The notes: generated by a model from the letters alone, not told the origin. Positions 7,193 through 53,435 are shown, counted from the first letter of the stretch. The stretch is DNA of 64,000 nucleotides from Psammoneis japonica (GCA_008632985.1 QPGO01000084.1:248001-312000); one strand, 5' to 3'. Numbers and translations are program-made.

Positions 7193-7253
7193 TGAAACAT
7201 GTTTGCTCCTTTTGCTTTCTTCCAAATGGAGAGCAGCACGCAAGTCTCTGGAC

Positions 7254-29960: not shown

Positions 29961-30149
29961 TGGAAAGGGCTCGTGAAAGGCGCTTCCTGTTACTTGCTTG
30001 CTTCCTGTTACTTGCTTGCTTCTACTTTAATACGTGGAGGTTACTTTCCGTTTCTACCAAAAAGACTTTTAAAAAACTCGACATTCTCAAGTCCCCGAAG
30101 CTCCTCTAGCTCGTTACTACAGACCTTTTTCACAATTGTGTTTGTGCAT

Positions 30150-30815: not shown

Positions 30816-30818
30816 AGC

Positions 30819-30838
30819 GGGTTAGGGTTAGGGTTAGG
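30819..30838 (+). repeat. Interstitial telomere-like repeat (TTAGGG)3
   Basis: gggttagggttagggttagg. Confidence 0.7.
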
Positions 30839-31891: not shown

Positions 31892-33759
31892 TCAGTCTAT
31901 GCTTTGCCCCGTTATTCTCTTCAAATGTGGGTGGAACAGCAGACGTCGAAAACGAACCAGATGAAGTACTGTAATTTGAAACAAGATAATGCAAAATACA
32001 ACTTTCGTATAATTGGCACATCCCGGAAAGAGGGTCCGCTCAACTTGATGAAGCCAATCTTTTGATTCCACAAGAGCTGAATACCAAACAATGAAGGGTA
32101 ATACAAAGAAGCGCGTGTATCTGGCAAGAAAGGAATGAAAGAAAGCGATTGCAGGTAAGACTTTAATCTTCAGAAAGCACACAAAGGGTACTTAGCCAAC
32201 AAACAAGCTTACAAGTATGACGGAACCACCAAAACTCTATGGATATTGGTGATGACAGTCTTGTTTGAGAGAAAAGAACGGTTCGATGGCGCGTTGATGC
32301 ATAATTGTAACAAATGCAGGAATACACTGGATACGTCCAAAGCAAACATGCCCACCGCCCCTAATCGACGGAGCGAGGAGAAAAAGTAGCACCCCACTAA
32401 ACATGAGATGGCAATCGAATGCTGAGCCAAGCTCGTCACATAAGATGACTTCGAAAACCCTCTCTTGGCCGATGGCAACAATCTTGGTATCTCATCTTGT
32501 CGCTTCTTGGATTGGTTCCTTTGGAACAACACCAATAGCACAAGTGACAATAGGTGAAAGCACAAACTGTGCAAATGATACGACGCTTGCAAAATAAAGT
32601 ACCTTTTGAGAGTGGAATTCAATTCGTCAAAATCCACCGCAACATCACCGCCAAAGCCCCCTCTTAAATCCCAACAATTACGAGTCGATTGTCCCATGTT
32701 TCCCCCTACGTACGGAGGCCAAAAGCTGGCGTTTCGAAACCAAAGCAAAGCACATACGCATGCAGTAGTGCTGTACCCCAATCGAAAGACGGCTGTGGCA
32801 TATCGTGGTGCAGCAAACAAACGAGTTTTTGGTTTATCTTGATGTCGTTTGTGAGAGTCGCTCTGTGTTTTACCATCATCCTCGTTCGCTTCGTCATCAA
32901 GGTCATGCCCCAAGGCTAACAGTGAGGATCGACTGGCACTGCGGCTAAGAGTGACAATCCAGTCTTGATCGTCCAACTCCGAAGCTGGTTCTGGATTCGG
33001 TTCGTTTCTCTTTTCTTCTTGTTTCGCATCAAATGGGAGAGGCGGCAGAGATTCGCGAGGCAATTCACGAATCATTCGATCATCCTTAGCGCTCTTGGGT
33101 GTTAGCAAATAAGAACTCGAAAGCAAGTGCGTCGACTTGCTTCGCACCAAGGCTTCAAGTCTTGATGAACTCTCCAAGTATTGTGGAACGAGAGCGTGTA
33201 CAAGTAAAATCCGAATGACCGCCATGGACAAGCTCAGAATGGTAACCAGCATGGCATCCGATACGGCAGAAGTCGTGTCGAGTACAACCAAGTCTTCTTG
33301 TTCCTCTAAAGCAGAATCTGGCAAGCACCAACTTGTGTATCCCCAGCTTGTACACAGATAGGCACTCGCCACAGTGTAATAGTCACTAGCCATGTTGTAA
33401 TAGTGCGTGTAGTAGCTTTCGACTTCTAGTGCTTCTTGTGGCTCTTCCAGGACCAGACCGGCATGTCGTTGTTGAAGCAATTTGGGAAATCTTACTATAA
33501 ACCCCAACAAGGTAGGGAGAGTCAAGCATAGACCATACACTATAGCTCCCTGCAGAAAATCACTAAAGGCTTGATTGGAGACTTTTTGTTTTTCCTTTTC
33601 AGCTTTTCGCTCATGCATAGTCGGCGTTTTGTCAAGGAGTTGTTTCCTCTTCTTCTTTTTTTTTAGGCCCCTCTTTTTGGCCACCACAGCCATGGTGATA
33701 TCCACATTGAATAAGGTTTCATCTTCATCGTCGTCTCCTGCTGCTGTTTCGTTGGTCAT
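31892..33759 (-). CDS. TLC (TRAM/LAG1/CLN8) domain membrane protein, ceramide-synthase-like; exons 33759-32213 and 32120-31892
   Basis: Long ORF with several TM segments; RYATAVFRLGY, FWPPYVGG, LKRYFILQASYHLHS, QHSIAISCLVGCY, RLGAVGMFALDVSSVFL. The intron 32121-32212 (gtaagc..gccag) joins it in frame to YTRFFVLP. Confidence 0.8.
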
Positions 33760-33888
33760 TTGGCTCGTAGAAGTATTAACAGGGCCCTCTAGAGTGTAGA
33801 GGATATGAAAATGTTTGCGGTGTGGGCCGACCACTAACTGTGCACTATTAAATTAAATATCCCTGCTTATTTTTCACGAGCTCTAATT

Positions 33889-34205
33889 TGCACACGAACC
33901 ACATGCTGGTTCCTGTGCATTTACGTACATTTTATACCAGTCGCATCGTAGAGGGGTGTTGTTCGCCGGCCCTGACGAACTCTTTCTCAGACATAAAATA
34001 CTTTTCACGACGTTCCGGCACATGACTGCCGGCTCGGTGGACACTGTTTCGAGTGCGTTTTCACGTAGAGCCTACTGCAGATGTAGGCATTCAGATTTAA
34101 TTCGGTACAAATCTACGCAGCATTTTGCGTAGGGTGCACACGAACCACCAGGTGGTTCGTGTGCACCCAAAAATGCACACGGACCACCAGGTGGTTCGTG
34201 TGCAT
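33889..34205. repeat. Three copies of a palindromic hairpin TGCACACGAACCAC-N-GTGGTTCGTGTGCA
   Basis: Copies at 33889-33919, 34132-34168 (perfect 18-bp arms) and 34173-34205. Confidence 0.8.
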
Positions 34206-34256
34206 AAGCAGGGATATCCCGGCGGCTTGGGAGGTGCTCTTCATCAGTCTACTACT

Positions 34257-36655
34257 CACCCCTGCGTCAGTGGAGAGTATGGTTGGTGATGTCATGGTGA
34301 TGTATGCTCACGTCATGGCATTTTTATATTTGTATAAATGTAAAGACAATTACATTTGTACACAAATGCTTATAGTTGCAGGAAAAATCCTGAACCATAC
34401 TCTCCCCTAAATCTCGAGCCGCCTCGAAGGGACCCCACCAATTGACCAGTTTTCAGCCATCTCTTTACCGCGAAAAAAGCACGCGGCACAACAACCTCAC
34501 CATGATGCTTTCAGAATGTTCGTCCCCTCTCACTTATGACGAAGAAGCGACCGACGGTACTGATGATATTTAACCCACTGCAACAGGCAACGTTGTTGAA
34601 ATTACCGTCGTAGCCCTATTGCTTCCGAAATAATACCTTATTTACTGACACTCTGTTTTTTCAGCTCCACCGCCTGCCGAAGCTTCTGGCATGAATGACA
34701 ACGCCGCTTCTGCCTTTCCCGTAGCTACCACGCCCGGAACCTTTCCTTACCCGACTGGTACAACAGGTAATTATGTTGCTTTGTCTCTCATTAGCCTAAT
34801 ACTGACGAAATTATTTGGTACCAACTAACACCTTTTTTCTGTGGCTGCGCAGCGCCTACCACTGATTTTATCACCAATGCCAACGCTATGACCAATATTA
34901 CGGCGGATGGCACCCCCGGTGCCTTTCCTACTACGCCCGGTCCATCAGGTAATAACACATGTATCATGTATTGCTGTTGTGTACCAAAAATACCAAGAGT
35001 ACTGTTACACTATCTCACGCCATTTTCACTCATGCTCCACAGTGCATGCCACTGCTTCCGTAATTAACTAGCTACACTAGTCGTACTAACTTCAAACTGT
35101 ATTGATGAACGCGTATGTAGCCTGTTCTGATTGAGCATCTCCCTCTTGGCTCTCACAAAAGGATACCGGTATTGGAAACGATGGTGAAACCACAATTCAC
35201 AATGCATAATACTGGCTTTGGATAAGATAGAGAGCTTGACACATTAATGGAGTTCGCTACCCGAAAAAATGCACGCCATGGTGGAGTGGATGCTGCCTCT
35301 TGTTTCGGATATCTCATTCTGCTACTACAGATAGACGAAAGACGAAAGGTCCCTAGGTTCAAGTGAGTTTGACTTACGAAGCTACTGAAGTCTCTCAAGA
35401 ATGTCCCAACCTGTTCTTGAACTATACTTTCCAGAATCCAGAAAGCGGCGGAGGCGGCTCTCGCCTCGCGGAGAGGCTTGTTGCTAAAATTAAAAAAAAA
35501 ATACTGTCCTGGAGTCTCTCTCTAGAACTAGGAAAAAGAAAGGTTTATAATGCTGTACTGCATTCTCTCTAACTAGAGCTAGAAAAAAGAAAGGTTGGAG
35601 AGATAGAGATGTCACTTCAATCACCATGATGACCGACTCTGACTACTCTAGAACCAGGTCTAGCTAGTAGAGTAGAGAGCTACTAGTAGCTAGAGAGAGA
35701 CTACTGTAGCTACTACTCTCTCTAGAGAGTAGAGAGCTCCTCTACTACTAGTAGAGAGAGTAGCTAGCTACTAGAAGTAGCTAGAGTACTACAGTAGCTA
35801 GGCCTAGCTCTAGAGAGTAGAGAGTAGAGTACAGTAGGAGTAGTCTAGACCAATCTACACCCGGAAACAACTTGGCGTGTTTGTCCTTACGACGACGGCG
35901 CGTAGGGACGGAGGCGGCGTTTGATTTCGTGACTCTGGGATACATGTGTTATTACCTGATGGACCGGGCGTAGTAGGAAAGGCACCGGGGGTGTCATCCG
36001 CCGGAACATTGGTCATAGCGTTGGTATTGGTGATAGAATGGGATCTGTCCCCATAGCGGTAGGCGCTGCGCAGCAACATAAAAATGGTGTTAGTTGGTAC
36101 TAAATAATTTCGTCAGTTTGGGGCTAATGAGAGACAAAGCGACATCATTACCTCTTGTACCAGTCGGGTTAGGAAACGTTTCGGGCGTGGCAGATACAGG
36201 AAAGGCAGAAGCGGCGTTGTCATTCATGCCAGAAGCTTCGGCAGGCGGTGGAGCTGAAAAAACAGAGTGTCAGTATATAAGGTATAATTTCGGAAGCAAT
36301 AGGCTTACGACGGCAATTTCAACAACATTGCCTGTTGCAGTGGGGTTAACAACATCAGTACCGTCGGTCGTTTCTTCGTCGGAAGTGGGAGGGGACGAAT
36401 ATTCTGAAAGCATCATGGTAAGGTTGCTGGGACGCGTGCTTTTTTCGCGGCGCTGCAGAGCACCAAAAGTGCTCAATTGGTGGGGTCCCTTCGAGGCGGC
36501 TCGAGATTTAGGGGTGCTATGGGATGCAGGAGATTACTTATGCATATATGTGTATTCGCCTTAAGACGAATATTCTCTTAAAAACGCATGTGATGACATC
36601 ATCACACATCACACACAACCACATCCCATACTGTAGTGCCACTGACGCAGGGGTG
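34257..36655. mobile_element. Foldback/MULE-like element with long inverted arms and a probable 9-bp TSD (CAGTCTACT)
   Basis: Terminal CACCCCTGCGTCAGTGG is inverted at both ends. ~560-bp inverted arms at 34404-34965 and 35939-36514. CAGTCTACT occurs at 34245-34253 (3 nt from the end) and at 36656-36664. Confidence 0.75.
35515..35850. repeat. Low-complexity CTAG/TAGAG/TACT-rich tract in the spacer of the foldback element
   Basis: e.g. tagctagtagagtagagagctactagtagctagagagaga. Confidence 0.75.
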
Positions 36656-36799
36656 CAGTCTACTGTGAGTGCGTTCATTCAGTGTGGCGTGGACGACCTC
36701 CCTCGCACTCGTCTCATCGTGATGCGTCGCGAGCCGCGCGAGCACGCACCGACCCGAAGGTCTCCTCACAACATTGGGATGCAATGACAAATTTGACCA

Positions 36800-38150
36800 G
36801 ATTTATCTCACAGATGGCATGCTGTACACAAGCATTCCAACCTGACCAGTGCAGCAACTCTTGCCGCTAAAGTTGGGTCCGGCAGTGACATTGACACGAC
36901 TCTGACCCCCACTCATGTTTGTGTCGTTCCCAATGAAGAATTCGCCATCCACAATGAGCTCTCCAGCACGGTGCTGATGCCTGCCATTCTTGATTTGAAC
37001 ACACACGTTTGGCCAGCCGGGAGCAACTGGGGGCTGGGACAACACAAAGTGTCTTTTGTTTCAGCTTCAGGTGTGGTGGTGCAGGAGGTGTCAAGTGGTG
37101 TCTTTCGAGTTCACGAGAAATCCTGCTTGTGGAATGAAAACTGCACCGAAGTTTCGAAAGCATGTTGTTTCAGCGCGCTTGTCGCCAAGTTGGTCTGCTG
37201 TGGATGTGAGCAAGTCTGTGTGTTTGTGTTGCAAATCACAGTGCAGCACAATGACATGATCACTCACCACCAAAGTTTTTGCATTGCTCCCTGCTCGTGT
37301 CTGTTCTTTGGACTCAAGCGCCAGCTGTTCTTGATCGACGATGGAGGTGATTCGGCCTTGCCAATCCCGCATGATTGGAGCGGCACATTTGTCCAAGAGA
37401 CGTCCAACAAAGGAAAAAAATTGCTTGGCAGCCTCCTTGACATCAGGTTTGGGTGGGATGGTTCCATTGAGCAAGTCTTTGAGCAGACTCTCAAAGCTCA
37501 CAGTGAGAATGTCACAAGTCCTTGAGGCCGCGTCCAGTGTCTTGGTGTGCACAACAAAATCCATGGGTTTGGTGAGACGCTTTTTTTCCTTGTGACATGA
37601 TCTCATTGACAGCACCAATGCTTTCCAGATTGGACATTGGCTCAGCTGCGCTGTCATCAAAGTCTGACTGCAAACACATTTTCACTCCTTCTTGAAGTTT
37701 GGCAACTTGGCCACAACCCAACAGCGGCTTGAGCATCCATTCTCACAAACAATGCAGCACCCCACTTTGGACTTGGTCCAATCCAACAGACTGAAGAGAC
37801 TCAACCCCACTTTGGACTTGGTCCAATCCAACAGGCTAAAGAGACTCAACCACTCAATCCTTGACACATGTCACTGTCCCTTGGCCATGAGTGGATGATG
37901 CTTGGCAGCAAAAATGAGCAAGGCCTGAGAAGCGTGGCGGAGTCTGGTTGAAAAATGACATCTTGCAAAAAAGACAAGAGAGCACCAAGTGTTTTCAGTT
38001 GAACAGGGGAATCAAAATCCACAAGACTTGCAATTGGGCCAAGGGTTGACACCTGAGTCAGGGGGGGGCTGCCTCTGGAGCGCATGCGTGTGAGAAGGCA
38101 ATGTGCGACATCACCCAGCGGTGCAGTGTGAAGCACAGATGGCGTGCCAA
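36800..38150 (-). pseudogene. MSH5: MutS homolog MSH5 (meiotic) degraded fragment
   Basis: LSLFSLLDWTKSKVG (duplicated, 45 bp) ... EWMLKPL; VFIPQAGFLV; VQIKNGRH..ELIVDGEFFIGNDT..RVNVTAGPNFSGKSCCTGQVGMLVY (MutS P-loop; consensus SCY is read as SCC). Frameshifts. Confidence 0.75.
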
Positions 38151-38599
38151 TGGGATGAAATGGCGTCATGCAGGCAGGGAACAGGATGGTTCTTGGGGTT
38201 GGATTGGCAAGCTGTGATTCAAGTTTGGTGGAGCAGCAAAGAAGTTGGTCAGCAAGGGATTGATGGTTCTTGGGGTTGGACTGGCAAGTTGTGATTCAAG
38301 TTTGGTGGAGCAATTTCCATTTTGTGCTTGCAGGGTGTGCCCCGGTCATGAGGTCTTGAGTGGGAGGCAGGCAAGCCAGGAGCCAGCAGGAGAGAGAGTG
38401 CAATGAGAGAGTTGTTGAGGGTGAAAGGATGGATGAGAGTGTGGCGGTGATGTGTGGCGGGCCATGGCAGCAGAGGTGATCAAGTTGGTCGGCAAATTGC
38501 AGGTGATGTGTGGTGTGAGGGAGCAGGTTGGGGGGGTGTGGCTGGGGCTGCCCAGTTCATTGTGTTGGTTGAGGGGGGCAACCACCCAGGAGCACGCAC

Positions 38600-39450
38600 A
38601 CATGAGGAGTTCATGTGGAACATCACCTGGCGGCACTGAGGGAGGGGCAGACACGTGAAGCAAGGGTGGAATTGAGTCACACAGGCAGGAAAAGGGATGG
38701 ACTTTGAGTTGGGGTTGGAGAGTTGGGGTTGCAGTTTGGCAGAGCAGTGGGTCAATTGTTCAGCAAGATTTGGCAATTGCAAGGATCAGGCTTTGAAGGC
38801 CCCACTGTGATGGAGTGGAGAAGCGTGGCGGGTCAGGCCAAAGCATTCGGCTGTTGTGCCTTTTGCCAAGCAGTGCTGGCAGTGTGGAGAATGGCCAATG
38901 GTGATGATTGGGTGCAGGCACATGCAGCATGGGCAGCTGGGTGTTGGGAAGAGGATTCAGTGGGCCAGGGAGGGGCTGTTGTGGCAGGGATGGGGTGTTC
39001 TTGGTTGGCGCCAAAAAGAAGGTGGTGGGCACAGCAGCCAGGGGCTCCTGGATGGTCAACAGTGAATGGGATGAGGCAAATGCTGGCATCATTGAGGGCG
39101 GATGTAAGGGTGGCTTGGTGTTGGGTTTCATGGGTTCTGTTGAACTTCCGTTTGGTGCTCACATGGTGTGCCTTGGTGCGAGGGTCAAGGGTGAGGGCAG
39201 ACAAGCCAGGAGCAGGCAATGAAGGAGGTTTGGGGATGGCAACATTGATTGAAAGGTGGCGGTGTCTGAGAGGAGAGGCAGTGGAGGCAGGAGGCAGCTG
39301 GGGTGAGCCAGATGCCCACATCAGCAGGGCGCTTGAGGGAGTGAATGGGGCATCAAGTCAGCGGGTTCATGGTGGATGGCAGATGAGTCAGCGCAGATGC
39401 CGGATGGAGGGGCGAGTGTTTGGAGAGTCACATGTGGGCTGTCTTGGGCG
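38600..39450 (-). mobile_element. Probable non-LTR retrotransposon (CRE/R2-type) restriction-like endonuclease fragment
   Basis: Minus-strand translation gives KRPADVGIWL ... LSINVAIP ... KRKFN ... LIPFTVDHPGAPG, which resembles the RPAD-DV-K..KY-P..VE..G RLE motif order. Confidence 0.5.
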
Positions 39451-39469
39451 GCATTGGACATGGTTGTTT

Positions 39470-40550
39470 TGTCTGCAGGCCTTCTTGAACTTGGAGTTCA
39501 TCCAAAGTGAGCACAACCAATGCCTTCTGCTCCGCGAAGATTGCACGGTCTGCCTGCATGTTGACGATTGTGGCATCATTGCAATGCAGAAGTCCACCAT
39601 TGATCAAGTGATGTCTCAGCCACACAAGAAAGGATTTGAGTTGACAAAAAAGGGCAGTTTCACCGAGTTCTTGGGTGTCAAGTTTGAAAGACAAGATGAT
39701 GGTGCTGTCAAGTTGTTGCAAAAAGGGTTGACAGACAAGATTTTGCTTGCCATTGGCATGATGGACTGCAAACCAAACTTGCTTCTCGCGGCATGTCAAG
39801 CACTTGGCTTTGATGTGGATGGAGATCCTGCGCAGGAGGACCGGAGCTGTCCCTCCATCATTGGAGTGCTCCTGCATCTGTCTGCCAACACCCGTCCTGA
39901 CATCTCCCTTGCCGTCAGTCAGGTTGCACATTTCAATTCCAACCCAAAGCAGTCACACACCACCGTCATCAAGACTCTGGTCTGCTGCTTGAAAAGGGTG
40001 CATGATCAGGGGATGCCGTTGTCTTCAACTGGTTGTTTGGATCTTGACTTGTGGGTTGATGCTGATTTTGCTGGCCTGTGTCACTGTGAAGTGGACTCTC
40101 ATCTGATTTCAGTCAAGTCTTGCACCAGACATCTCATCACTCTCAGCGGATGACCTTTGGTGTGGAAATTTCAGCTCCAGTTGGCCATTTCATGCTCCAC
40201 CCTTGAAGCCAAGCACCAAGCTGCCCTTCATGCTCTTTGGACTCTCCCACCTGTGAAGAACATGTGCGCCTTGAGGTCGTCTCCACCCTGGACATCTCCC
40301 AAGATCTCAGGACCTCTGTTCATGTGCGTGTGTTCAAAGACAATCAAGGTGCTTGCCACCCATGGCTGCCAACCACCACATCATGAACCACACCAAGCAT
40401 TGTCTTGTCAAGTGGCGTTGGCTCAGGTCTCATTGTGACAAGTTCAATGCAATCAAGGTGGAACCAGCTGATCAACTTGCCAATTTTCTTGCCAAGCCTT
40501 TGACTCAAGAGTTTTTCTAGAACAACCCACTGAAGGTCCAAGGGTGGCAG
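39470..40550 (+). mobile_element. Ty1/copia retrotransposon RT and RNase H remnant
   Basis: QSEHNQCL..VCLHVDD (from YVDD), EFLGVKF, CPSIIGVLLHLSANTRPDISLAVSQVAHF, LDLWVDADFAGL, STLEAKH, DNQG, ADQLANFLAKPL. Confidence 0.9.
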
Positions 40551-40663
40551 TGTGTTGTGGCTTGGTCAAGATGTGGGAGCTTTGCTCTGAACTTGTGCCA
40601 ATTGTGTGAGCTTCTCATTTGCAATTTCCTTGTTGGTTGCTGGAATCTGCAAATGAGAGGGAG

Positions 40664-41139
40664 AGTCATGGGTCATCTGTCCACTGACCCAAATTCTCTG
40701 TTGTGTTTGCACTTCTGTTGGTCAGAATTCTGCGGCCGGTGGCTTTGGGGATCACAGGCATTGCGTGGATGTTGGGCCAACCGCAGATTGGTTCAGCAGC
40801 ACTTGGAGGATGATTGCTGTGAAAGTGGTTGACCCTGAAGCTTGTGCTGGTCTCCAGCACAAGTGTGCAGATGAACCTCTGTTTGGCACATTCTCAGCAG
40901 ATTTGTTCTGTGCAGCTTGTGATTTGGTCACTGGTGGTTTTGTGAAAGACTTCTGACCAATTGTTTGTTTTGCTGCTCATCAGCAGATGCTCTCTGCTTG
41001 CATTCTGCCAGAGGCATTGGTCTGGAGCAGACATCCAGTTGATGTGTTGGGAAGGCACTTGGAGCTTCATGGACACACAAGCTTTGACTCCACACCAAAC
41101 TGCACGCCACCATTTGTTTCATCCTTTCTCACCATGACA
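40664..41139 (+). mobile_element. Putative copia 3' LTR preceded by polypurine tract
   Basis: Purine run aaatgagagggag at 40651-40663. Terminal inverted ends agtcatgg...ccatgaca. No matching 5' LTR seen in the window. Confidence 0.5.
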
Positions 41140-42549
41140 TGCTGCCCAATGCATTTTGCCCTCACTGAACCAAAGCTGCATCAAGTCCGAGTGCAAGTCT
41201 GTGTGGATGACAAATTTCCCTCAAAGGGGGTTCCTGCTGCCATGGCGGCAACAGCCACATTGGGAAATGCTGTCTGATCTGCAGATTGGAGCCAGCAGTC
41301 AGAGCCTGAACCTGGAGTGCTGTGGTCAAGCACCACAAGTCAGGGCCAACCCGAGTGGATCATGCAGAGGAAAGTGAAACCAACATGGCAGACAAGAAGC
41401 AAAAACTGACTTTTGATCCCAAGCAACCTTTGCACATTGCACTTTTTCTGCATGCATTTGGCGCTGCTTTAAACCCAACATGAGCAGCCTGTCTGCCAGC
41501 GATGCTTTAAGTTGTCACCCAGAACCAAACAACATTTCGAACAACCCCATGGCGCACACTGCTTGCAACAAAAGGGGGCTCCAATGCCACACGCCAATTC
41601 GATTGCCAGCACAAACAACACATTTGTCAGGATGTGTGGCTTGGTGTCGCCCAACTTGTCATGCCGCTCTTTCACATTTGTGGCCTCATTTTGGCCTTGC
41701 TGTTGACACTGGCCACGGGTGGATTGGCTGTTCTTCTGCCGCAAAGCCAAGTTTAGCGCGGCAAAGTTTTGGCGCCATGCATCCATGTGGGAAAGGCTGC
41801 TTGGACCACACACATGTCCACCATTTGAAGGGGGCCACTCTTGAGGCACAGCCAAGATTTTGTCCATCAGAAGGAGACCCCAACTTTTGTTTTGTTCTGA
41901 GCTGCAGTTCTGGCTTGGTGCCATTGATTCTCAAGGAAATCAAAAACAAAGTCCAAGCTCCCTGTGTTGAGGTGCATGACGTGATGGGAAGCAAGCCATC
42001 AAATGTGTTCCTGCCCAACTGATGGAGAGCACAATTCAGGCACAGTCGGCAAAGGCACGGGTGTGGAGGTTGCCGTTTCAACATGTGTGGACCAAAAATG
42101 AGCTGACACATTTTTGGTCTCGCAGTGGTGTCCGACCATCCTGCAGCATGACTTTCAGAGCCTCGCAGCTGATTTTTGCTGTTGAAGCATGCCATTTCCA
42201 ACGAGCATTCTTTGGATGCTGCATTGACAGGCCTGCCCCTCATGCAACTCCAAATGATGTCAGGCTGAAAAGGCAGTCTTTTGTGTTTGGCTTTCTGGCT
42301 GTCAAGACCGGAGTTGCAATCTCACCTCAAGTGACTCTTGTGCTGTTCCAAAGACACAATTCTTCAAGAGCTGGGTTTAAAACATGCTCCAATTGATCCT
42401 CCAAACAAAAGTGGTTTGCTCACATGGCGTGTGCTCACTTTCCTCCTGCTGACAAGAGTGTGGCTCACAATCAACCCCACCTTTGATCACACCACGGTTT
42501 GGGCATGGCTGTGGAAGAACAGGGTCAAGAAGCACAAGCTGCCGTAGAA

Positions 42550-43433
42550 CAATTTCATCATCTTCTCAAAGTTTGCCCCAGCAACAACCTTGTGTGCTCC
42601 TCTTTGAGGTGTTGCTGACTGCTGGAGAACACAAAGAGGCTGAAAAGATTGCCGAAAAGCATTCTGAGGGACGTCAAACACAAGAATGCCATTTTGCTTG
42701 CAGCTGCGTGATTGTCGATTTTCTCAAATTCAAGCTCAGCATGGGCAAAGGGAAGCAACTGAAGGAAACCCTCTGCAAGGCTCTCATGCTTGACAACATG
42801 GTGCTGCTCCTGCTGCTTGCAGATGTTGATCTTGGACCTCCACCCAAGACGGTGGCACAAGGAAGCACAGGTGAAGCCACTTTGCAAGTGCGGTCTGCCA
42901 TGAAGCATTGGGAAAGAACGGCAGAGGTTTTGGACTTGTTTTGCGCAGCTTGCAGTGTTGAGATGGATCCAAGCCCAATGATGGTGTGTCCATTCTATTT
43001 CAGCCAATGCAAAAGGGATGCACAGTCATCAGACTCCAAGAAGGAGAACACAAGGAAGTTGCAACCAACGTTGTCAACATGCCAGGAACAGGGCTTGCAG
43101 ACTTCAAGCTCCCTCCCGGCATGAAGGACCACAATTCATCCAGGATGGTTTGCTGCATGAGCAGCAATGCCATCGCCAACTCATCCTACGGCGAAGCTGC
43201 GTCTGCCGAGTTTCCATGGGGCCTACTTCTGTCCAGTGGGTGAGTTTGCTGCAGCGCTGTTCCGCTTTTGGTGACGACGAAGAGCCCCACGCATGAGCGC
43301 TACAGCATGCTTCAAGCCTGCCAACATGCGATGCTCCAAATGTAAGATTAGATGGCACTGCAGCACGGATTGTCAACGAAAGGGCTGGAAGAAGCAGCAC
43401 AGGATAATGTGCCCCGAATACCTCAAAAAGTAA
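42550..43433 (+). pseudogene. MYND zinc-finger protein remnant
   Basis: C-terminal CFKPANMRCSKCKIRWHCSTDCQRKGWKKQHRIMC (consensus YCS is read as HCS). The upstream helical region is frameshifted. Confidence 0.7.
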
Positions 43434-45700
43434 GAAGAAGGACGTGTTTTGAATTGCGCCTCTGTTGGGTCTTTCTGCCTATGCTCGTTTAAGACACAGG
43501 GGTTCTTTTAGAAAACACCCACTGTAGGAATATAAGTGATGGTACTACGGTCAACTAGCGGAACCCCTTCCTTCAGCGTGCAGGTGGGCAACCATCAGCT
43601 ACTTCCAGGAGAACTCACAGCGCCGTCACCCAAGTCTTCCAGTCCCAATTGGTGAATGGAATCTTCGCTTCACCAGTCGCCACGACTCCAGCCAGCGTGC
43701 ACCATCTGCGTATGTTATTGTTGGATTCAAAAGTGGTCCCAATGGCGCCCCCCTTTGAATTCGGCATTTTTTATCCGCATCAGAGAAGCTTCCAGAGCAG
43801 TCAGTGTAAAGCACGCCGGACAAAGGTTGTTACAATCAAAGAATATGCATGGCATATTCAATGTCGTTGGGTTCTTTCATACCTTGTTGAATCACCGGGA
43901 TGCCTGAAAAAGGTGATCCGTGAGAACTAAAACGAGCTCGACTCCAGCATTTTTCCACAATCGACTCCTTCATCTGGCTGATTCAACTCCACGTTATCTT
44001 CGTACAAGCTCTACAATACGAGCAGGTCGGGGATTTCTTCGGACATTTGGTTGTACGTCGCTTTAATGTCCCGCATAGAGGAGCAACCCATGCATCGCCA
44101 CCATCCGATAATCGCACTTGAAATTTGCTATTGTCAAGCTTGAACCGTCCAGGTAGAACGGTTCCAATTGATGCACGTCGCTCCTTCCCACCAAATCGCT
44201 TATGGTGAATGCTGACGAAGCCTTCGTCTACCCACCCACCTACCAAACGAGTTACCATGATCATTCAGCCAATGCAATGAGGTCGGTCCGCTGGGAGCAA
44301 TGGTCGAGGTATTGGAAGCGAGCGTATTCAACAGTAACGTGAGTTTGTGAATTTTCGTTATACTTGGTCCAATTGAAAGACACATTGCGTCGCATATATT
44401 CATATGGCGAGTCACATTGAAAGCCTCGATGCATGATTCTATCCACGATCTGAATGTCGGGGGCCACGACTGCTGGGAATACATAGAATCTATGTTGTGC
44501 AGCTTGATATATCTCAACAGTCGCTATTTTCGTCCCAGCTTTTTCCACTGTATTGTAATCTTCATAGTTCATCTGCTCATCATAACGGAGACAAAGGATT
44601 CAATGTAGCATAAGCTGATCCATCCCAACAAGCGAGTTGGGTCAGGGTTGTTCGTTGACCAAGCCAATCTCGTCATCCACGAGCAAAAATGCAATAATGG
44701 AGAAAAGATAAAAGTAGAATGGCCCAAGACATACAAGAGTTTGTGTCGCGCAAGCGAGGCAGCCCTATTGGTATCAGAGTTCCCACCACCGCCACTCTAT
44801 TATCGTAATGCTTCGTGTACTCCTATCATGTACATACCTATAGCCAAACCTTGGCACGATAATACCAAACACCTAGCTTCAATGAATACATTGATATCTA
44901 TTTTATGAACCGTTGTTGGTCACCGGGCTCTACCCATAGGCACATGGAACCAATTGACACGGTAGCGTTTCCTCAAGCACCTACTGTCGTGTCTACGCGC
45001 GAACAAGCAAGAGACGAAGAGTTAGCGTTCATGGTCAACAATCGAAATCATTGCAATTTTAAAACACAACCAGCGAAAGAAACAATACTTCAAAGATTCT
45101 TACCATACAGAAGCATCTTCTTCCGAAACATCCGAGCTTGATCGAGCCCGCGCCTCCTACAGAGCATCGTCCAATCGAGGTGGCACCATTGTCGCGCCCG
45201 GTCCCAAGTCACAGTTCTTTCTCGACCTGCTTTTGCAAGTGCATCCTGAAAAGTGGGAGAACGCAAGAGAGCCCCGTCGGACGCTCATGACGGCAGGGCC
45301 AGGACTTTTAACAAAATTCGCCAAGAAACGAGAAGATGTGGTTTCAGCTTCAAGACTGGACGACAGCCACTCACATGTCCACACCTCGTTTGGAACGTGG
45401 AAGCCACAACAGACTCTGCTTCACGAGAAGTGCGGAATCTCATGTTTGATTGTTTTCCTTGGATGCCGCACTGTTCAGCTACCGTATGCTAGAGTATGAT
45501 GGTACATTCTACGCAGCTTTGGGTCCCAACCCTTAAGTAAATCCAATTGGGCGTGGCAGGCGCGCTCCTGATGAGCGTACAGACCATCACCGCGGTGCCA
45601 TCGATCGCGAGGAATTTGATCAAATCTCGCAGCGACGATGGTGAATGTTGCGACGATACGAAAGTTATCTAAACCTTCGTTTCTGCGAGAACGTATTTGG

Positions 45701-46284
45701 TACCAGTAAAAAACCGAATTGAGTCCTTATGACTGAACTGAGTCCTTATCCGACCCATATGTTGAATCGATCGATAAAATGATGAAAAAACCAAGTAATC
45801 AAACTGTTTTAGTTGCTGTGATAATCTTCAATTGCTGCTGCTTCTGACCATGTGTTTGGATTTGGGTGTTTCAGTTTTCTCCGGCTGCCCGTTGCCGTCG
45901 AACATGGTCGTTTGTATTTTTTGAAGCGGAAACGAGATTCAACAATTCTCATGTAATTTTTTTATCAAGACACGTACATCATATATCCTCACTGCTCCGT
46001 GCTGCTTGCTGATTTGGAGATATGTTGAATTTCTCTGGTACTTGACACGTAGAAATGTACAGGGGGGCCGAATTGAGTCATTGCGCGAAAAAGGTGCAAC
46101 TTTTGCCGCTAGATTAAGCTAATCCCAAGCCCATTTCACAACCGACTGTCATCAAAGAACTCGTTAAGAGATGATGAAAAGCTAGGAAATGCGAAGAAAT
46201 GGTCAGTTTTAGGCCAATGATGGGCAAAAAATGGCCATTCAACACATGGCAAAAATGAGGACTCAACTCGGTTTTTCACCAGTG
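45701..46284. mobile_element. CACTA-like non-autonomous element (~30-bp TIRs)
   Basis: Left end taccagtaaaaaaccgaattgagtccttat versus right-end reverse complement cactggtgaaaaaccgagttgagtcctcat. Internal subterminal copies of gaattgagtc/gagtccttat. TSD is imperfect (tgg/tgt). Confidence 0.6.
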
Positions 46285-46499
46285 TGTTGTCAACCAGCCT
46301 CTGTTTGATGGGAATCCAAATGCATTCTCCACGATTTTGATTGTGTGGCGAGTCATTGCCGATTCAGTCGTCCGTGGCGCCATGTCACGAGCCGATTCTA
46401 CATCCACCACCCATGCGCCGGATTTTCGGCACCAGCTGAGTCAAAGCCGGCGGCCACAAAAAGGCTGAAAAACACAAATCGAAAATGGTGGTTGCACCG

Positions 46500-49400
46500 T
46501 GGTCAGTGCAACAACATGGGTCAAAAGAAAACTTCGTGAACGCAGATGGAGAAAGACCATCAAAGCCAGACCCAGGCATCTCCAATTTGGGGAGAGCCCA
46601 CTTCTGATGAGGACTCAGCACTCGACATGTGAGCATGTTCGTGGTCGCAGTCGGTGGATCAACGACCCCGCCACAAAAGCTTGACAAGAGGCTGGTTGGC
46701 TTGCTTGGGCACAAGGGGAGTCCACCATGGAAGCCACTCAATTTCAGGAAAAAGATCTGCCGACAACAGCAGAAGGTTTCTCAGATTTTTTTGACCATCC
46801 TGAAGACATGGAGCGTGTTGCAGACAAGCTTCAGACAATTTTGAGGAACAGCAACTTGCTGTTTGAGCCAGACTCAAGTGCCGCGGATCTTGACTCTGAC
46901 AGCGATGATGCAGGTGCCAGCGAAGGCAACAATTTTGTCTCTCCACCACCATCCAAGCGCCCCAGAACTGACGAGGACTCCATTGTGGGTCAAGACGACG
47001 ATGACGAATGCGACAAAGATGGCGGCATCAACCGTGTTGAAGATCCTTGGCTCATGGCACAATTGCGGCAATTGGCAAAGGTTGATTTGAGAGCTTTCTC
47101 TGAACTGGAATTTGTTTTGCTTTCAGCGGACCAGAGCAACAGTGTTGGAGACACTGCGGCGATCGTGGAGGCATGCAAGACTCGGGGATTTGAACCATCG
47201 TCCGACACCATCCAGTCTCTCGAGACGATGTCTGTTTTCAAGCTTCGGGCCTCCAGACGGATCATTGAGACTGTTCGTGGTGAATTTGTGGCAACCCAGC
47301 AACACTTCGAACCTTCTGACAATGAACCACTGATTGACTGGCTTGACCAAGTCAAGCAATTTGCAGAAGGCAAGCGATGCGGAGACTGCCACCAACGCAG
47401 CGACTGCGAGCGATGCAGAGAGTCGAGTGAGAGTTTCCTCGAAAGAAACTTCAATCGACTTCAGAATGGCGTGTGCAGCATTGAGGACAGAGCAGCACAA
47501 GTCGTCCGACACGTTCGCCATTGCCGCAACATTTGCTTGTCAAGAATGGGTGGGTTGCTGAATGCACTCGCCCCATTGTTCCTTGGGAGAGCTCTCAAGG
47601 AAGAAGAGTTTGCGCTGGAGTTGACAACTCAAAATCGTGTGCAGCATCTCGACCTGATTGACACTTTCCACCTGAGGTGCAATTTCCAAAAGCACTCTGT
47701 GGTTCAAGATGAATGCGGCAACAACATCATGATTTGCAGTTGCGACGATGACTCCACATTTCATGGTGGCAAGCGTCATGTGCTGCTCGTGACGGCGAAC
47801 TCAGAGGACAAGACACCAAAATTCCATCTTGCAACGACATCGGCTTCCGTGTCAGCGGATGGTGACGGCAACTCTGATCTCAATGTCAAAGCATTGACAG
47901 ATCTTTTTGGAAAAGAGAATGCCCCTCAGTTCTTCCAACACTTTGGCGGAGGATGCTCTGATGATGCTCCTGATGCCTTGGAAACAATGCGAAAAAGTTT
48001 TGAAAAGGCCACGCACCTCATCCCGGAAGAGGCGCGCCTGTTGAATGATGTTGCCAGATGGGCCATTGTTTGGGGCGACCCCTTTCACATTGCAAACTTG
48101 GTGGTCATGTGGGCGTCTCTCGCTGATTTGGAGAAACCGACCGCACCAGCCATCAAGAAGTCCATCACCGACAACTGATGCAGTCATTTTTTGATGCTTT
48201 GAAGGGGAACAGAGGCCTTGCATGTTCTGTTGCAATGGAAATCTGCAAGGAGCATGACTTGCCGACAGTCGTTCCCAAAGCGGCAAGAGAGCGCCAACAA
48301 CGATGGTGTGTCAACCAACGTCAATGCAAACACTTGTTGGAATTGCATGACATGCAGTGTGGCGACACAAGTTTCTTTCTCCTTTTTTGCCAAGAAGTGG
48401 CAAAACATTTGGGAGGATGCCAAAGCAACGCAATGGAACACTGCGGCACGTTGATGAGCATGCCCAAAATTCGACTTGCTCTTCAATTTGAAGCAGAGCT
48501 TGGGTGTTTCTTTGAGCCTGTCATGGCGTGGCACTCCCACACCGGTTTGATCGCGAACATTCCTGGCTTTCGTGTGCTAGAAGTCCGCGCCTTCTTTGTC
48601 AACTTCGAGCTGCCATTTTGGAAAAAGCACGAGTCAAGCCAGCCAAAGCATTCCCCAAGACGTTTGCTGGGCTGTCAGAAATTGAAGATGAGGCGGTGAG
48701 AGATGTGAAACGAGATCAGATCGTCTCTGGTGGAATTGAAGCTGGGTTCAAAGAACTGCTCAAGATGACGAGGCACTGTTTCAGCCCATCCAACATGTCT
48801 TTGGTCCTTGTTGCTGAGCACACACAATGTTTTGCTCGCGCGTTGCTCCGGTTCCTCCATGAAGATTCCGACAACTTGCGATTTGCTGTGGAGGATGCGG
48901 GCATGTCACAATTCAATGAGCCAGCAGGGCTTGAAGATGAGCTCACCAAGTTGCCAGAGGTCGACATTGACAGCGTTGTTCATTGTCTTCAGCAACTCGG
49001 ATTGTCAAAGCATCGTGCTTTTTCCAAAATCAAGAAGCTCTCATTGGATGAAGAAAATGCCAGCCACCTTTTTGATTTTAAGGAGGCACACCCAGCTGTG
49101 TTCACGACATTGCATTCTGCACTTCATTGTTCATTGTCTTCAGCAACTCGGATTGTCAAAGCATCGCGCTTTTTCCGAAAGCAAGAAGCTCTCATTGGAT
49201 GAAGAAAATGCCGGCCACCTTTTTGATTTTGAGGAGGCATGTCCAGCTGCACTCATGACATTGCATTCCGCATTTGGGCTCTTGCCATCAGCAATTCGCC
49301 TGGCGGAGCAAACGATGGCGATGCTCCGAGGGCATCTTGGACTCAAGACTGCAACTTCATCGCACACGAGTGCAGACCAACGCAAGCGGCATTCAATGAA

Positions 49401-50166
49401 TGTTGAGCATGACAACCAAGTGGCAAGGCAGAAGAATGTTGAGAACCGACATGACAAACGCCCGACTGGTGGTTTCAAGCATGAGAAAAGCAAGTCGGAG
49501 CAGCGAATGGTTGGGGAGCAAATGATGGAGTCAATGGGCAGATGCAAGGACGAAGTGTTGGCTGAAGAGCTGACCAAAGCTGAATTTGACAGCATCAAAA
49601 CAAGACACTTGAATGACAAGGGTGTCATGGGGAAAGACAAAACACGGATTGAAGCCCAAAATGCAAGGGCTCTAGAGAAGGTGGCCCAAAAAAAAAAGCC
49701 TGGCAAGATGGCGATCGATTTTGAGATTGAAGGCTCGGAAGAAACTGTGGACAACGACGACAATTGGGCTGCATTCGAGCAAGCCGAGCTCAACAAACGT
49801 CGCAAGGAGCTTGCCACCCAAGCCTTTTGGGCAAGCCAGTCACTGCAAGACATTCTCATGGTGTGCCAAGAAGTCTTTCCAGGGATGCAAAAGCTCCAGC
49901 CAGGTGGCAGGGGGAAGCTCGCCAAGACGGGCATGAAAGCTCTGACAAAAGATTGGCTGTCTGCTGAAGGAGCTGCTGCAAAAACAAACACAGCTGCTGC
50001 AGCTGGACTTGAGTGTGAAAAGTCTGAGTCCAGCGCAGCGAAGCGGAAAGAGGCAATGCAGGGTTTGTTTGATGTGGCTGGGTCGGAAATTGGCCAGCAC
50101 TGCTTTGAAGCTTGCAGCAATGCACGACACACTGTGCTGTGTTTGCTTGGCAGGAATCATGTGTGA
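46500..50166 (+). mobile_element. Degraded DDE transposase, hAT-like, inside TpA-depleted domain D5 (46200-50380)
   Basis: Motif order DDST ... GGCSDDA ... WGDPFHIANLVV (C/DxxH..NL) ... RQQRW ... FGLLPSAIRLAEQ (P.S...E) fits hAT. Frameshifts, including a 151-bp tandem duplication at 48976-49272. No Tyr in the 483-aa ORF 46727-48178. Confidence 0.6.
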
Positions 50167-53100
50167 TCCCAATGGTGTGTGTTGCTTCTCCCCAATCACC
50201 AGTCGCATGCTCAGTGAACACTCGCACGAGATTCGAAGTTGGGTGCTGTGGGGCAGGTCGTCTCGGAGTGAAAAATGTCTGTTTTGTTTTCACAAAGCAT
50301 GGCCTGTCGAGCTGCAATGAGCGTGCCATGATCTTGGGATTGCAAACCACCACAAATGTTGCCACCCTTGCTAATCACCTCTGCTCTAGAGTAGCCCTCT
50401 AGTGGGCCCTCTAGATAGAGGATGCCGCAACGTGCAACGTCCCTGTCATCGCAACGCCTGTAGAAATGGCACGAGCGCTCGTGCAAGTTTTACTCGTGAC
50501 TTCGAATCACCAGTCGAGAATGTATGTTGACTCATTCGATTGAATGAGTCACGACTCGGGAATGAAAATGGATCCATTCGACTAGAATTTATGAAAATAA
50601 AAATAGTTAGACTTTGACCCCCCACTCGAGACAGAAATACACAAGATATGAACCTTATCGGTCTCCTACCCTTTAAAACAATGTCTTGCGAGAATAGAAT
50701 AGGTGTGTATTGTTCATGGTGTGAGGTATTTGAAAATGGAACTAACTTTTCGCGGAGCACCTTTTTACTGTACACGTGAAAGTACGAGGGACGATTTTTA
50801 GTGATAGCTCTATCTAACGCAACCTTCTACTTGCGACCCCAAAAGTTATCGGGAACTTCGTATCGGCTGGAAATGTATTTTGGAAAACCAGGCCTGCGGG
50901 GAGCATTGACCACTTGTCTTTCTTTGTGGGTGTGGGTGTGTGCCGTTGCATGCTGTATTGCCTGTACGTACGTAGGGCCCTACCGCCGGGGCCGGTATTG
51001 TGCGTGGCGGCTGAGTGGCGTGGCCACCGCACCGGTGACGCGGATGACCGTTATATTTGATGTCTCATGCCATTTTTGGGGCTGTAGCGAGGTGCACGGA
51101 CACTCTTTTTTTTCCAATTTATCGCCATAAATAGCGCATCGCACAAACTCACTTATTGTTCGATATGTTTTCCCAAATATGACTGTTTCGTGTAGAATTC
51201 ACGACAAATTATCTTTGTTTATAACTGAATACAGGCATCGCTGATCTAATCGAAATCGCGCAGCGCGCACATCTAGTGTGCAATAGGAATCATTCGGGTC
51301 CTGAGAGTCTATGGCTCCAACTTCCCGTAGAAAGACCTCAAACATAAATTTTATTTAAGACTGGATAATAAATAAATTTGGGTGTTCGCAAAGATTTGAC
51401 TACTTGGACTGCTCAGTTTTTGGTTGTCTCGGCGCGTGCTTCTTCGTGTTATTTGCGCATCGCGACAATGGCGAAACACCGTTCCGCTGCAACCTGCTCA
51501 ACAACGACGTCTCAGTAGCTCGACAAATCATCAAAAACGAACCAATCACACTAAGACGCGTCAAATGGCAGTAATTTGTCGAGCCACTGAACCGAGTTGA
51601 CGAAGAAATGACGATTTGCAGTGACGCCTTCACGTCTTCGTCGACACGACAAATGATGATGCCATGCAAGATCGATGGAAGGCAGATGGAACATTGGATC
51701 CGACGTATTCGACTTCACGTTTGACTTGACAACTCTCCATCATCGTGTAAGGTGGGAACTTTTTGCAGTGCGCTGTCTCAAAACATGAACTTTGCTGCGT
51801 GCCCTCGTTCGATGTGCGCACGTTGAGTGAAAAGCAAATTAAAAATTGGCGTTTCGGCCAATGGCATGACCCTGTGGACAAGATTCTCCTGAACGTGCCG
51901 CCAAGAAGTGCACCTCTTCCGGGGTGGCTGGAGCAGGTGATGATGAGAAGTGAGCACTGAAGTTCACACTAGACCAGAAGCAACTGCCAGTTACGACCAC
52001 AATGAGTTTTGTCAATGGAGTGTCAGTGTTGTTTGCATTTCAGCAGTTTGGTTTATCTGGTCATAGAACCGTCCAAGGGTGAGCAAACACAAGGAGTTTG
52101 TGGTTGCATCTTGCTTGATGCCGCACTCTGAGGTTCCAAACACTGGAAGCATCAGAACAAACTAGATCATCAAAAGCACTGTGCAGCACAGGCCGCTCGT
52201 CACTTGGCACAGTCACACTTCAAGAATGCCATTCACCACCACATGTTGCGTTTGGCAAGTTGCAAGTCATGCTGGATGGATTTGATCTGGGCCACGCACT
52301 CGTTTCTCAACAAACTCAACGAGCATCGACGACAAGGCCAACTGCTCAAGCTTGACGAGAAGAAGTGTTTCGAGTTCAGAGATGAACTTGAGGTCCATGC
52401 CCAAGGGATCCAACCAGGAGAAACACTGCTCTGTTAAAAACCATTCTCCTGAAACAATGCGAGGAGTTAAAAGGAAGGAGTGTCAGCAGCAGGATTGGCA
52501 TCAATGCAAACAAGTTCTTCTAAAAAATTTCGTCCTCTGTGTCCACTGACATTTAATGTGCAGCACTGAACAATGCACAGTCCTCTTCTGCCTGCACTTG
52601 CCTTGTTGCTGCCGTGTCAATGACGATGGCGTTTTAGTCTCTCGGCAATTGTGCCCGTTGCTCATCATCTTCTCCTTGTGTCGTTGCATTGTTTTGGGTT
52701 GATTGATTGATGAGTGCTGATGACAGCGCGAGAACTGAAGCCGATTTTTTAGTCGGCAGAAAATTTGTCTTAAATGTGCATTTTGAATGTGTTTTGATGA
52801 TGGGGTCTTTCAGTGCGAAGTTGGAGCCATGGAGTCATCACGTGGAAATTGTGCAGGAGAGCACTAAAAGACAATTGTCATCAGTCTGTCCATCCGTCCG
52901 TGTGCGAATGTCAACTTCTCGGGAAATCAATTGAAATGCTGTCTGATTGACGGCATTTTGATCCACACAGTGAAGGCCAGTGCCATCAACCAGACAGCAT
53001 TTCAACTGAGTTCCCGAAAAGTCATTGGCTCCAATCACTCTCTCGCATGACATTGTGTGCATTTCCACACGATTTTGTGTTTTTCCTTGTGCAAAATGTC

Positions 53101-53435
53101 AATTGTGACCCACCCAACATTTTCGAATGACTCCTGTTGCATTGTTTTTCATGTTGTTTCCACAAGCATTGCATTGCTGATGAACCCAAACAATTTTGTT
53201 TCCACATTTGACCGCAAATGCAGCGTTTGTCATTTTCATGAATGAGGTCCGTGAGACATGAAGACACGTCGGACATTTTTCTGCATGCGCTGCTGACATC
53301 ATCTGTTGCTGTTTTAACCAAGCCTTCGACTCCAAACGAGGCCGGTGTCAGGCAGTTCTGACGCATGCCAAGAAGTGCCAGTTCCTCACCACGGAGATGC
53401 TCACCAAATGCTCGCCGCATCTGTTTGCATCAGTT

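Follow-up and report, generated by a model that had tools for sequence, protein, structure and literature searches.

A mutational process that removes TpA dinucleotides has so far been described in one organism only, the chlorarachniophyte Bigelowiella natans, in a 2026 preprint. In mutation-accumulation lines of this alga, 231 of 302 nuclear point mutations lay in two integrated viral regions, and 230 of these 231 were A->G or T->C changes stated to fall on TpA (Mettrop et al., bioRxiv 10.64898/2026.01.13.699255, 2026). The reported rate is ∼6e-7 per site per generation, with mutations in some lines only, and the process raises the mutation rate ∼1000-fold; the genome also holds 324 predicted coding sequences low in TpA and 124 TpA-poor clusters rich in CpA and TpG, with reverse transcriptase and DDE endonuclease domains enriched (10.64898/2026.01.13.699255). 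As the responsible enzyme, its authors suggest an adenine deaminase resembling ADAT2 (10.64898/2026.01.13.699255). Here, we analyze a stretch of 64,000 nucleotides (nt) from the diatom Psammoneis japonica (QPGO01000084.1:248001-312000), referred to below as the window, and within it the interval 39470-43433 (3964 nt), which contains most of the remnant of a Ty1/copia retrotransposon. We consider it probable that the window records saturating TpA -> TpG/CpA hypermutation of repeat-derived, presumably silenced blocks in a diatom nuclear genome, of the type seen in B. natans and joined by CpG decay. Full-text searching of the literature turned up no account of this hypermutation for any diatom.

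The likeness to B. natans is close. In both cases only TpA is hit, the products are TpG or CpA depending on the strand, and the changes are confined to discrete regions; the direction measured in B. natans is the direction read here from proteins. On the other hand, B. natans belongs to the Rhizaria and the present host to the Stramenopiles, and the TA odds of 0.45 in the nucleocytoplasmic large DNA virus (NCLDV) insert of B. natans contrast with saturating depletion here, at 0.01 to 0.04 and over ∼45% of the window. The B. natans process targets viral insertions, whereas the apparent targets here are the copia remnant and a family of short inverted-repeat elements, with MutS-like and MYND gene fragments also hit; no viral gene was found in the window. 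CpG loss accompanies TA loss here, and the main text of the preprint does not contain the terms CpG, tyrosine, stop codon, trinucleotide, context, flanking, or diatom. Finally, the B. natans rate was measured in lines, while the footprint in P. japonica is known from sequence alone. The process would thus be of the same kind as in B. natans, acting in a diatom and far more densely in this window. The direction of the TA loss, its specificity for TpA, its action on both strands, and its restriction to particular loci are all shown by the data below.

The window has a GC content near 0.49 and is eukaryotic; its overall dinucleotide odds are 0.38 for TA, 0.70 for CG, 1.41 for TG, and 1.42 for CA. 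(TA odds, CG odds, and the like are dinucleotide odds throughout, and the TA frequency of normal blocks, 0.0444, is the baseline for expectations.) The TA deficit is patchy rather than diffuse: blocks with TA odds of 0.01 to 0.09 alternate with blocks at 0.56 to 1.05, and among 64 bins of 1 kb, 23 have TA odds of <0.15 and 30 have odds of ≥0.45. At least six depleted blocks have a joint extent of ∼28 of the 64 kb. The first, 4867-9303, is TA poor and broken by a TA-bearing insertion at 7254-7643; the second, 13362-14324, is short and TA free. Block 17306-27341 spans 10 kb with TA odds of 0.02 to 0.04 and CG odds of 0.11 to 0.20. Block 36869-42996 (6.1 kb), which contains most of the interval under study, is TA free and CG poor, with TA odds of 0.01 to 0.03 and CG odds of 0.23 to 0.29 in its core. 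Block 46400-50372 is TA free and has mostly kept its CG (odds of 0.52 to 0.73), and block 52866-56292 is TA poor with CG near normal. The GC content of TA-depleted DNA stays near 0.5. Edges are abrupt; past 50372 and 56292, one TA recurs per 10 to 30 nt. Within 39470-43433 there are 15 TAs, against ∼176 expected at the normal-block frequency, alongside 76 CG, 442 TG, and 417 CA. The longest TA-free run in the window is 2179 nt, and block 36869-42996 includes runs of 969, 1268, 1413, and 952 nt; the probability of 1413 nt without TA at the normal frequency is ∼1e-28.

The copia remnant, at 39401-40547 on the plus strand, is the only recognizable mobile-element coding sequence in block 36869-42996. 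It is truncated at the 5' end, comprises the C-terminal half of the reverse transcriptase and RNase H, and carries one in-frame TGA and frameshifts. Its score against Pfam RVT_2, 28.5 bits, is under the cutoff of 31.6, which is unsurprising in a copy that has decayed. Searching 1.84 billion representatives with phmmer returned 10966 relatives at E ≤1e-3, including 89 at E ≤1e-30. When relatives longer than 1500 amino acids were used in tblastn, 49 of 50 hits fell in 39401-40547; the best, at 50% identity, covered residues 1633-2009 of P0157, a metagenome polyprotein of 2009 residues, of which the remnant matches the C-terminal 377 only. No gag, protease, or integrase was found for the element within the window, and self-comparison of the window revealed no flanking direct repeat (long terminal repeat) around it. 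A metagenome scan for the DNA of copia relatives gave two loci, L001 (44% identity) and L002 (33%), both with ordinary TA odds of 0.5 to 0.7. Directly upstream of the remnant, still in the TA-free block, lies a G-rich stretch (38001-39500; GC skew of 0.41 to 0.44) over which the summed contig depth reaches 1383.

The initial annotation of this interval had proposed that conserved, ancestral tyrosines were replaced by Cys or His through TAY -> TGY or CAY changes (Y, pyrimidine; R, purine) and that the direction was therefore loss of TA. We aligned a 240-amino-acid frame of the remnant with 130 of the best 150 relatives (match of ≥170 residues) and removed four Tyr-poor relatives, leaving 126 references. 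Columns with Tyr in at least half of the references were taken as Tyr columns and compared with 110 other conserved columns, those of Tyr, Cys, His, and Arg being excluded. The seven Tyr columns read H, H, H, C, C, W, and L, and Tyr is retained in none. Cys or His thus occupies 5 of 7 Tyr columns but only 2 of the 110 others (Fisher p = 2.6e-6), 79 of which keep the consensus. The references carry Tyr in 79% of Tyr-column cells and Cys or His in 4%, and 102 of the 126 have no Tyr-to-Cys/His change at all, as expected if the tyrosines are ancestral.

Extending the frame through the in-frame stop (read as X) into RNase H gave eight Tyr columns, compared with 87 relatives. Their codons are CTT, CAT, TGT, CAT, TGC, TGG, CAT, and CAC; six of the eight encode Cys or His and are one transition from TAY, exactly the change that had been claimed. 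The copia motif changes named in advance are all present as CAY or TGY codons on the plus strand. The catalytic Y-x-D-D motif, YVDD in relatives, reads HVDD, with CAT at 39557-39559 where 82% of relatives have Tyr. Within 39848-39877, Y.S..G.LLYL has become C....G.LLHL, with TGT at 39848 (Tyr in 91%) and CAT at 39875 (Tyr in 90%), and the RNase H motif EAEY reads EAKH, with CAC at 40214-40216 (Tyr in 89%). The most conserved Tyr column of all (99%) has TGC at 39986-39988, where LRYL reads VCCL, and a column with Tyr in 66% of relatives has CAT at 40130. The Arg columns of the frame read R, H, C, and C, i.e., Cys or His in three of four; part of the Cys/His excess in the remnant therefore stems from CpG decay of CGN Arg codons and not from Tyr loss.

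Predicted proteins free of Tyr and rich in Cys and His, which the initial annotation had foreseen, do occur in public collections. Of the 150 top-ranking copia relatives, four have 0 or 1 Tyr; they come from ENA and Logan metagenome contigs and read Cys or His at 6/7, 6/7, 3/7, and 3/4 Tyr columns. The longest of these, P0026, is an open copia polyprotein of 2061 residues with a single Tyr. Its 17 Tyr columns read Cys at 10, His at 5, and Phe and Trp at 1 each, and it keeps His at 21/21 columns, Trp at 20/24, and Asp at 33/38. A 99% identical protein, P0151, differs from P0026 at 27 of 2061 residues: 13 C/H, 4 E/K, 4 I/V, 2 L/P, and 1 each of A/V, L/S, A/T, and P/S. To exchange Cys for His, two neighboring nucleotides must change, except where both copies arose from TAY by one transition each, which points to an ancestral TAY. 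On a codon-table reading, 26 of the 27 differences (all but P/S) are the pairs that a single TA yields when resolved in its two ways, whether that TA lies within a codon (CTA, GTA, TTA) or spans two codons. Since the two copies differ almost only at TA-derived sites, they were mutated independently after their separation; the near-absence of other divergence hints at a fast, burst-like process. P0026 and P0151, each with a single Tyr, were called as genes without a stop on ENA contigs of 8.4 to 8.5 kb, an example of an annotation artifact made from a nearly undamaged hypermutated element. More generally, gene callers emit long Tyr-free, Cys/His-rich "proteins" from hypermutated elements, and homology searches fail on them; zero Tyr together with TA odds near 0 is a simple flag for such elements.

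Direction can also be read without proteins, from three copies of a family resembling miniature inverted-repeat transposable elements (MITEs). The copy at 7254-7643 (plus strand), which has terminal inverted repeats, contains 28 TAs in 390 nt; the copies at 54279-54669 (plus strand) and 55024-55414 (minus strand) are hypermutated, with 6 and 1 TA left. At sites that are pyrimidine-purine (YpR) steps in all three copies, the patterns are TA/CA/CA at 10, TA/TG/TG at 9, and TA/CA/TG at 5. Because the three-state sites can be reached by one transition per copy only from TA, their ancestral state was TA, and they (n = 5) and the TA counts of 28, 6, and 1 both back TA loss. The TA-rich copy sits in the TA-free block 4867-9303, and its TAs begin and end within ∼15 nt of the element ends; hence, the block was mutated before the element arrived and not since. 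As a separate observation, the private TA losses of the two mutated copies, read on the plus strand of the window, comprise 12 TA -> CA and 2 TA -> TG changes, and the latest hits in their block may have fallen mostly on one strand.

These comparisons bear on the idea that the source of the blocks never had TA or that TA was selected against. Some room for it is left by the scarcity of recognizable homologs: when every stop-to-stop frame of ≥110 codons in the window (n = 142) was scanned against Pfam, RVT_2 in the copia remnant was the sole match inside the TA-free blocks, and most block sequence resembles nothing recognizable. However, the Tyr columns, the three-state MITE sites, and the C/H swaps of the twin polyproteins all need an ancestral TA, and noncoding and coding parts are equally bare of it, so we find native composition or selection very hard to credit.

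The process acted on both strands, as follows from the presence of TGY and CAY at former Tyr codons of a single remnant (3 His and 2 Cys in the seven-column set); TG and CA are also roughly balanced in 500-nt bins. The APOBEC3 and ADAR enzymes of animals likewise cripple mobile elements by deaminase-type, context-dependent transitions, but their substrates are RNA or single-stranded cDNA and their marks fall on one strand, whereas here both strands of integrated DNA are hit and sequences other than retroelements are included. ADAR-like adenosine-to-inosine editing of retroelement RNA before reverse transcription, fixed at integration, would suit the fact that the flagged element is a retrotransposon, and ADARs have a 5' U preference (10.64898/2026.01.13.699255). 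Such editing is nevertheless extremely improbable as the source of this footprint, given the hits on both strands, the unchanged AA/TT class (ratio of 1.03), the involvement of a MITE-like DNA element and of gene fragments, and the finding that integrated copies resolved the same TA differently, both in the MITE family and in P0026/P0151. Moreover, the surviving TAs described below indicate a preference for a 3' pyrimidine, whereas ADARs prefer a 3' G.

A mass balance of dinucleotides defines what was converted into what. Pooled TA-free blocks contain 2.0 TA, 23.8 CG, and 215.8 CA+TG per kb, compared with 44.4, 56.1, and 142.9 per kb in normal blocks. The combined loss of TA and CG, 74.7/kb (∼42 from TA and ∼32 from CG), is balanced by a gain in CA+TG of 72.8/kb, and the four YpR steps total 235 to 257/kb in all nine blocks tabulated. 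The changes are therefore transitions inside the YpR class, and a general A-to-G drift is ruled out. The remaining strand-symmetric dinucleotide classes, AA/TT among them, have depleted/normal ratios of 0.83 to 1.27.

TA loss is complete where CG is largely kept, in 46400-50372 (CG, 42.5/kb) and 52866-56292 (49.6/kb); TA loss and CG loss are separable processes. None of the 64 1-kb bins combines CG odds of <0.5 with TA odds of ≥0.45, and TA and CG are correlated across the bins (Spearman correlation, 0.70), with CG odds in TA-free blocks falling to 0.07 to 0.3. Methylation in the diatom Cyclotella cryptica occurs chiefly at CpG and extends over repeats in blocks as large as 30 kb, next to gene-rich stretches that are unmethylated (PMC5124317), a layout that fits the block pattern of the window. 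For the CpG -> TpG/CpA loss in the TA-free blocks, which varies in degree, the best explanation is that repeats were methylated at CpG, as is known from diatoms, and the methylated bases then deaminated. Decay of this kind, as in diatoms, plants, and vertebrates, turns CG into TG/CA inside silenced repeats, as seen here, but it is unable to remove TA, which is gone even where CG is nearly intact.

The TAs that survive carry information on the preferred target. In the ∼28 kb of depleted blocks, 57 TAs remain, distributed as 37 YTAR, 12 RTAR, 8 YTAY, and 0 RTAY; the 1461 TAs of normal blocks divide into 251, 380, 388, and 442, respectively. YTAR is thus enriched among survivors (odds ratio of 8.9; p = 9e-15), and TTAA alone makes up 19 of the 57. 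Counted on both strands, the base 3' of TA is A in 60 cases, G in 34, C in 15, and T in 5 among survivors, against A 583, G 687, C 844, and T 808 in normal blocks. Sites are best protected when both strands read TAR, and these contexts would imply that TAY is the preferred target. The main text of the B. natans preprint does not report such a TAY/YTAR rule. In the MITE copies, products sorted by context (YTAY to TG 4 and to CA 3; RTAR to CA 9 and to TG 3 cells) are too few to be decisive.

TpA is self-complementary, so the sequence cannot separate an attack on A from an attack on T. This symmetry leaves space for a different chemistry, in which adenine is not deaminated; instead, the T of TpA is oxidized or otherwise modified (5-hydroxymethyl- or 5-formyluracil, made by a TET/JBP-type enzyme), mispairs with G, and becomes C. 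Changes of A->G and T->C on opposite strands yield identical products, and the context bias reads equally well as RTA hit and YTA spared. Hydroxymethyluracil in dinoflagellates occurs preferentially at TpA, and 5-formyluracil mispairs with G. Against T modification stands the preference of the B. natans authors for an ADAT2-like adenine deaminase, which they draw from homology only (10.64898/2026.01.13.699255); we regard modification of T as the rather less likely chemistry, at perhaps one chance in a handful.

Repeat-induced point mutation (RIP), known from ascomycete fungi, invites comparison, as it also produces dense transitions in particular stretches and on both strands, disables transposons, and is detected by dinucleotide indices. 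RIP turns CpA into TpA, raising AT content (RIPCAL abstract). The polarity here is the opposite, with TpA destroyed and CpA/TpG gained, and duplication is not sufficient. A homology-dependent process of the RIP kind that instead targets TpA, mutating any duplicated stretch, could draw on several facts: the copies hit, whether of copia, MITE, or gene-fragment type, are repetitive, 1232 contigs of sequencing run X1 match 30001-50000 at ≥80% likeness, and the summed contig depth over several block parts exceeds the 54 to 65 of exactly matching contigs. The inverted repeat at 34404-34965 and 35939-36514 (span, 34404-36514) serves as a control. Its copies are 88% alike and belong to a family with a summed contig depth of up to 1795, but their TA content is normal (35 and 32 in 562 nt), and the differences between them comprise 27 transitions and 29 transversions. 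Repetition alone is insufficient for TA loss, since this high-depth repeat shows neither depletion nor a transition excess. One MITE copy retains 28 TAs while the others have 6 and 1, and the main target in B. natans is single copy (10.64898/2026.01.13.699255). We therefore hold a purely homology-dependent trigger to be improbable.

An artifact of sequencing or assembly, with systematic miscalls at modified bases, also has to be weighed, because TA and CG, the affected steps, carry base modifications in some protists and no sequencing platform is recorded for either the assembly or run X1. However, 31-mer contigs of X1 with a word depth of 54 to 65 match 36601-37635 (1035 nt) and 40584-42683 (2100 nt) with 0 differences, and the TA-rich MITE within a TA-free block has borders within ∼15 nt of its ends. 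The Tyr-less copia open reading frames stem from separate ENA and Logan metagenome assemblies. The B. natans process, for its part, was measured by Illumina reads (10.64898/2026.01.13.699255). Taken together, the exact contigs, the TA-bearing insertion, and the Tyr-less relatives make a base-calling artifact unlikely, and we give this explanation almost no weight.

Several points weigh against hypermutation of the B. natans type as set out above. Run X1 comes from the same sample and may be the assembly's own data, with its platform not on record, so its contigs are not independent proof. Two of the eight Tyr-column codons, CTT and TGG, encode neither Cys nor His. At the 19 MITE sites where one copy has TA and the other two agree on CA or on TG, plain parsimony puts the change in the TA-bearing copy; as these sites are equivocal, direction is decided by the five three-state sites and the TA counts only. 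The context preference is thinly reflected in the MITE copies before and after mutation, where TA was kept in 2/10 YTAR versus 1/46 other cells, a small count. A gain in YTGY+RCAR that exceeds the gain in YCAY+RTGR in 5/5 blocks agrees with this preference but is a rough measure. The terms "burst" and "ongoing" would be readings of the sequence pattern, silencing and methylation of the TA-free blocks in this genome are presumed, and the comparison with B. natans rests on a preprint.

With these reservations, hypermutation of TpA in place still accounts best for the data. TpA steps have been converted by near-saturating transitions on both strands, stopping sharply at block borders, and in coding sequence this has removed Tyr (TAY -> TGY/CAY) together with TAA and TAG stops. 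The responsible enzyme may edit A, or modify T, in 5'-TA-3', best when a pyrimidine follows (TAY); it may be directed at silenced foreign or repeat chromatin and act in bursts. CpG methylation and deamination would form a second process, such that both self-complementary YpR steps drain into TG/CA. A bolder extension, which we offer tentatively and would not bet on, is that diatoms carry a TpA-directed editor of double-stranded genomic DNA, maybe a TAY-preferring adenine deaminase, with transposon or foreign chromatin that is methylated and silenced as its target. Its bursts could be fast enough to strip a 2061-codon element of all its Tyr codons ahead of any other disabling change, and together with CpG methylation it would drive the YpR steps of invaders to TG/CA; such an editor would be old, dating to the stramenopile-rhizarian branch, or have spread among marine protists.

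Saturating footprints in a diatom and in metagenome contigs suggest a wider genome-defense habit of marine protists and not the quirk of one alga. The data also provide handles on the enzyme, namely, that TAY is hit, YTAR is spared, and TTAA is most resistant, and that depletion is linked to CpG-depleted, presumably methylated domains. A natural A:T to G:C editor of double-stranded DNA would be of interest to base-editing research.

The effect on stop codons was as the initial annotation had stated. TAA and TAG account for 94 of 57120 six-frame codons in TA-free blocks versus 1272 of 66144 in normal blocks, and stop-to-stop frames are correspondingly longer, with a mean of 36.7 versus 25.5 codons and a 99th percentile of 211 versus 131. 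It had further described the resulting frames as long, open, but dead. Openness is borne out by the frame lengths; that the elements are dead is suggested by frameshifts, by truncation, and by the loss of Tyr from the catalytic motif.

Two gene fragments near the copia remnant carry further changes of the same type. A MutS-like fragment with a Walker A motif lies at 36806-37060 (minus strand), at the edge of the TA-free block. It had been taken for MSH5 with GKSCY changed to GKSCC. GKSCC is indeed present, encoded with TGC TGC at 36851-36856 where MSH3 has Ser-Tyr, and 58 residues align to MSH3 (E = 7e-4; GKSCC opposite GKSSY) and to Escherichia coli MutS (E = 0.6). Pfam MutS_V gave no match for the fragment, which can be described only as MutS-like. 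The zf-MYND finger (PF01753) at 43275-43430 (plus strand; 34.6 bits against a gathering cutoff of 22.7) encodes His with CAC at 43356, a position taken by Tyr in MYND fingers of solved structure; the predicted change of YCS to HCS is thus found, but the site lies just outside the TA-free run, where TA density is intermediate, and it is anecdotal on its own. Upstream of the finger, an open frame of 223 codons (42453-43121, plus strand) is overlapped by a contig of a second run, X2, which aligns to 42469-43397 but differs from it at 110 letters and by 21 gaps. This frame is a decayed copy of a gene with a diverged relative in the X2 contigs.

Block 46400-50372 contains two Tyr-free open frames on the plus strand, 46685-48175 (497 codons) and 48769-50163 (465 codons). 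Both thus lie where TA was lost and CG kept, and the translation of the former resembles that of a genuine protein. It had no relative among proteins of 273 to 870 residues, and Pfam yielded nothing meaningful for it even with E values of up to 10 allowed. An assignment to hAT-type transposases (ZBED1 RNase-like, Hermes) was considered on weak, feature-based leads (scores of 0.76 to 0.82), with no sequence homolog, and was not accepted.

The normal blocks carry host genes. A TLC-domain frame at 32212-33852 (minus strand) has 48 relatives, and all organism-bearing names among them are diatoms, at 29 to 50% identity. An X2 contig joins 32120 to 32213, skipping 92 nt (32121-32212) that read GT..AG on the minus strand and represent an intron of this gene; since the contig is spliced, X2, listed as "DNA?," behaves like cDNA. 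The depth of X2 is 0 over 38672-40672 and 46676-50000, an absence on which no argument is built here. At 30071-30830, which has a weak match to UDP-glucose dehydrogenase, all X1 and X2 contigs differ from the window at many places, including a 10-nt gap and two longer ones; a second allele or close paralog, and not the version in the window, seems to dominate the contigs. A JmjC-type frame at 60742-61905 has 65 relatives, and 16 of 17 organism-bearing names are diatoms (best identity, 53%), the exception being a weak Ectocarpus match. From these two genes, whose identities do not exceed 53%, the host looks like a diatom that is itself missing from the protein collection. In the normal-TA gene region upstream of this frame, a tandem repeat at 57383-58964, with a unit of ∼525 nt and copies that are 98% identical, lies inside the open frames 56740-58593 and 58422-60308.

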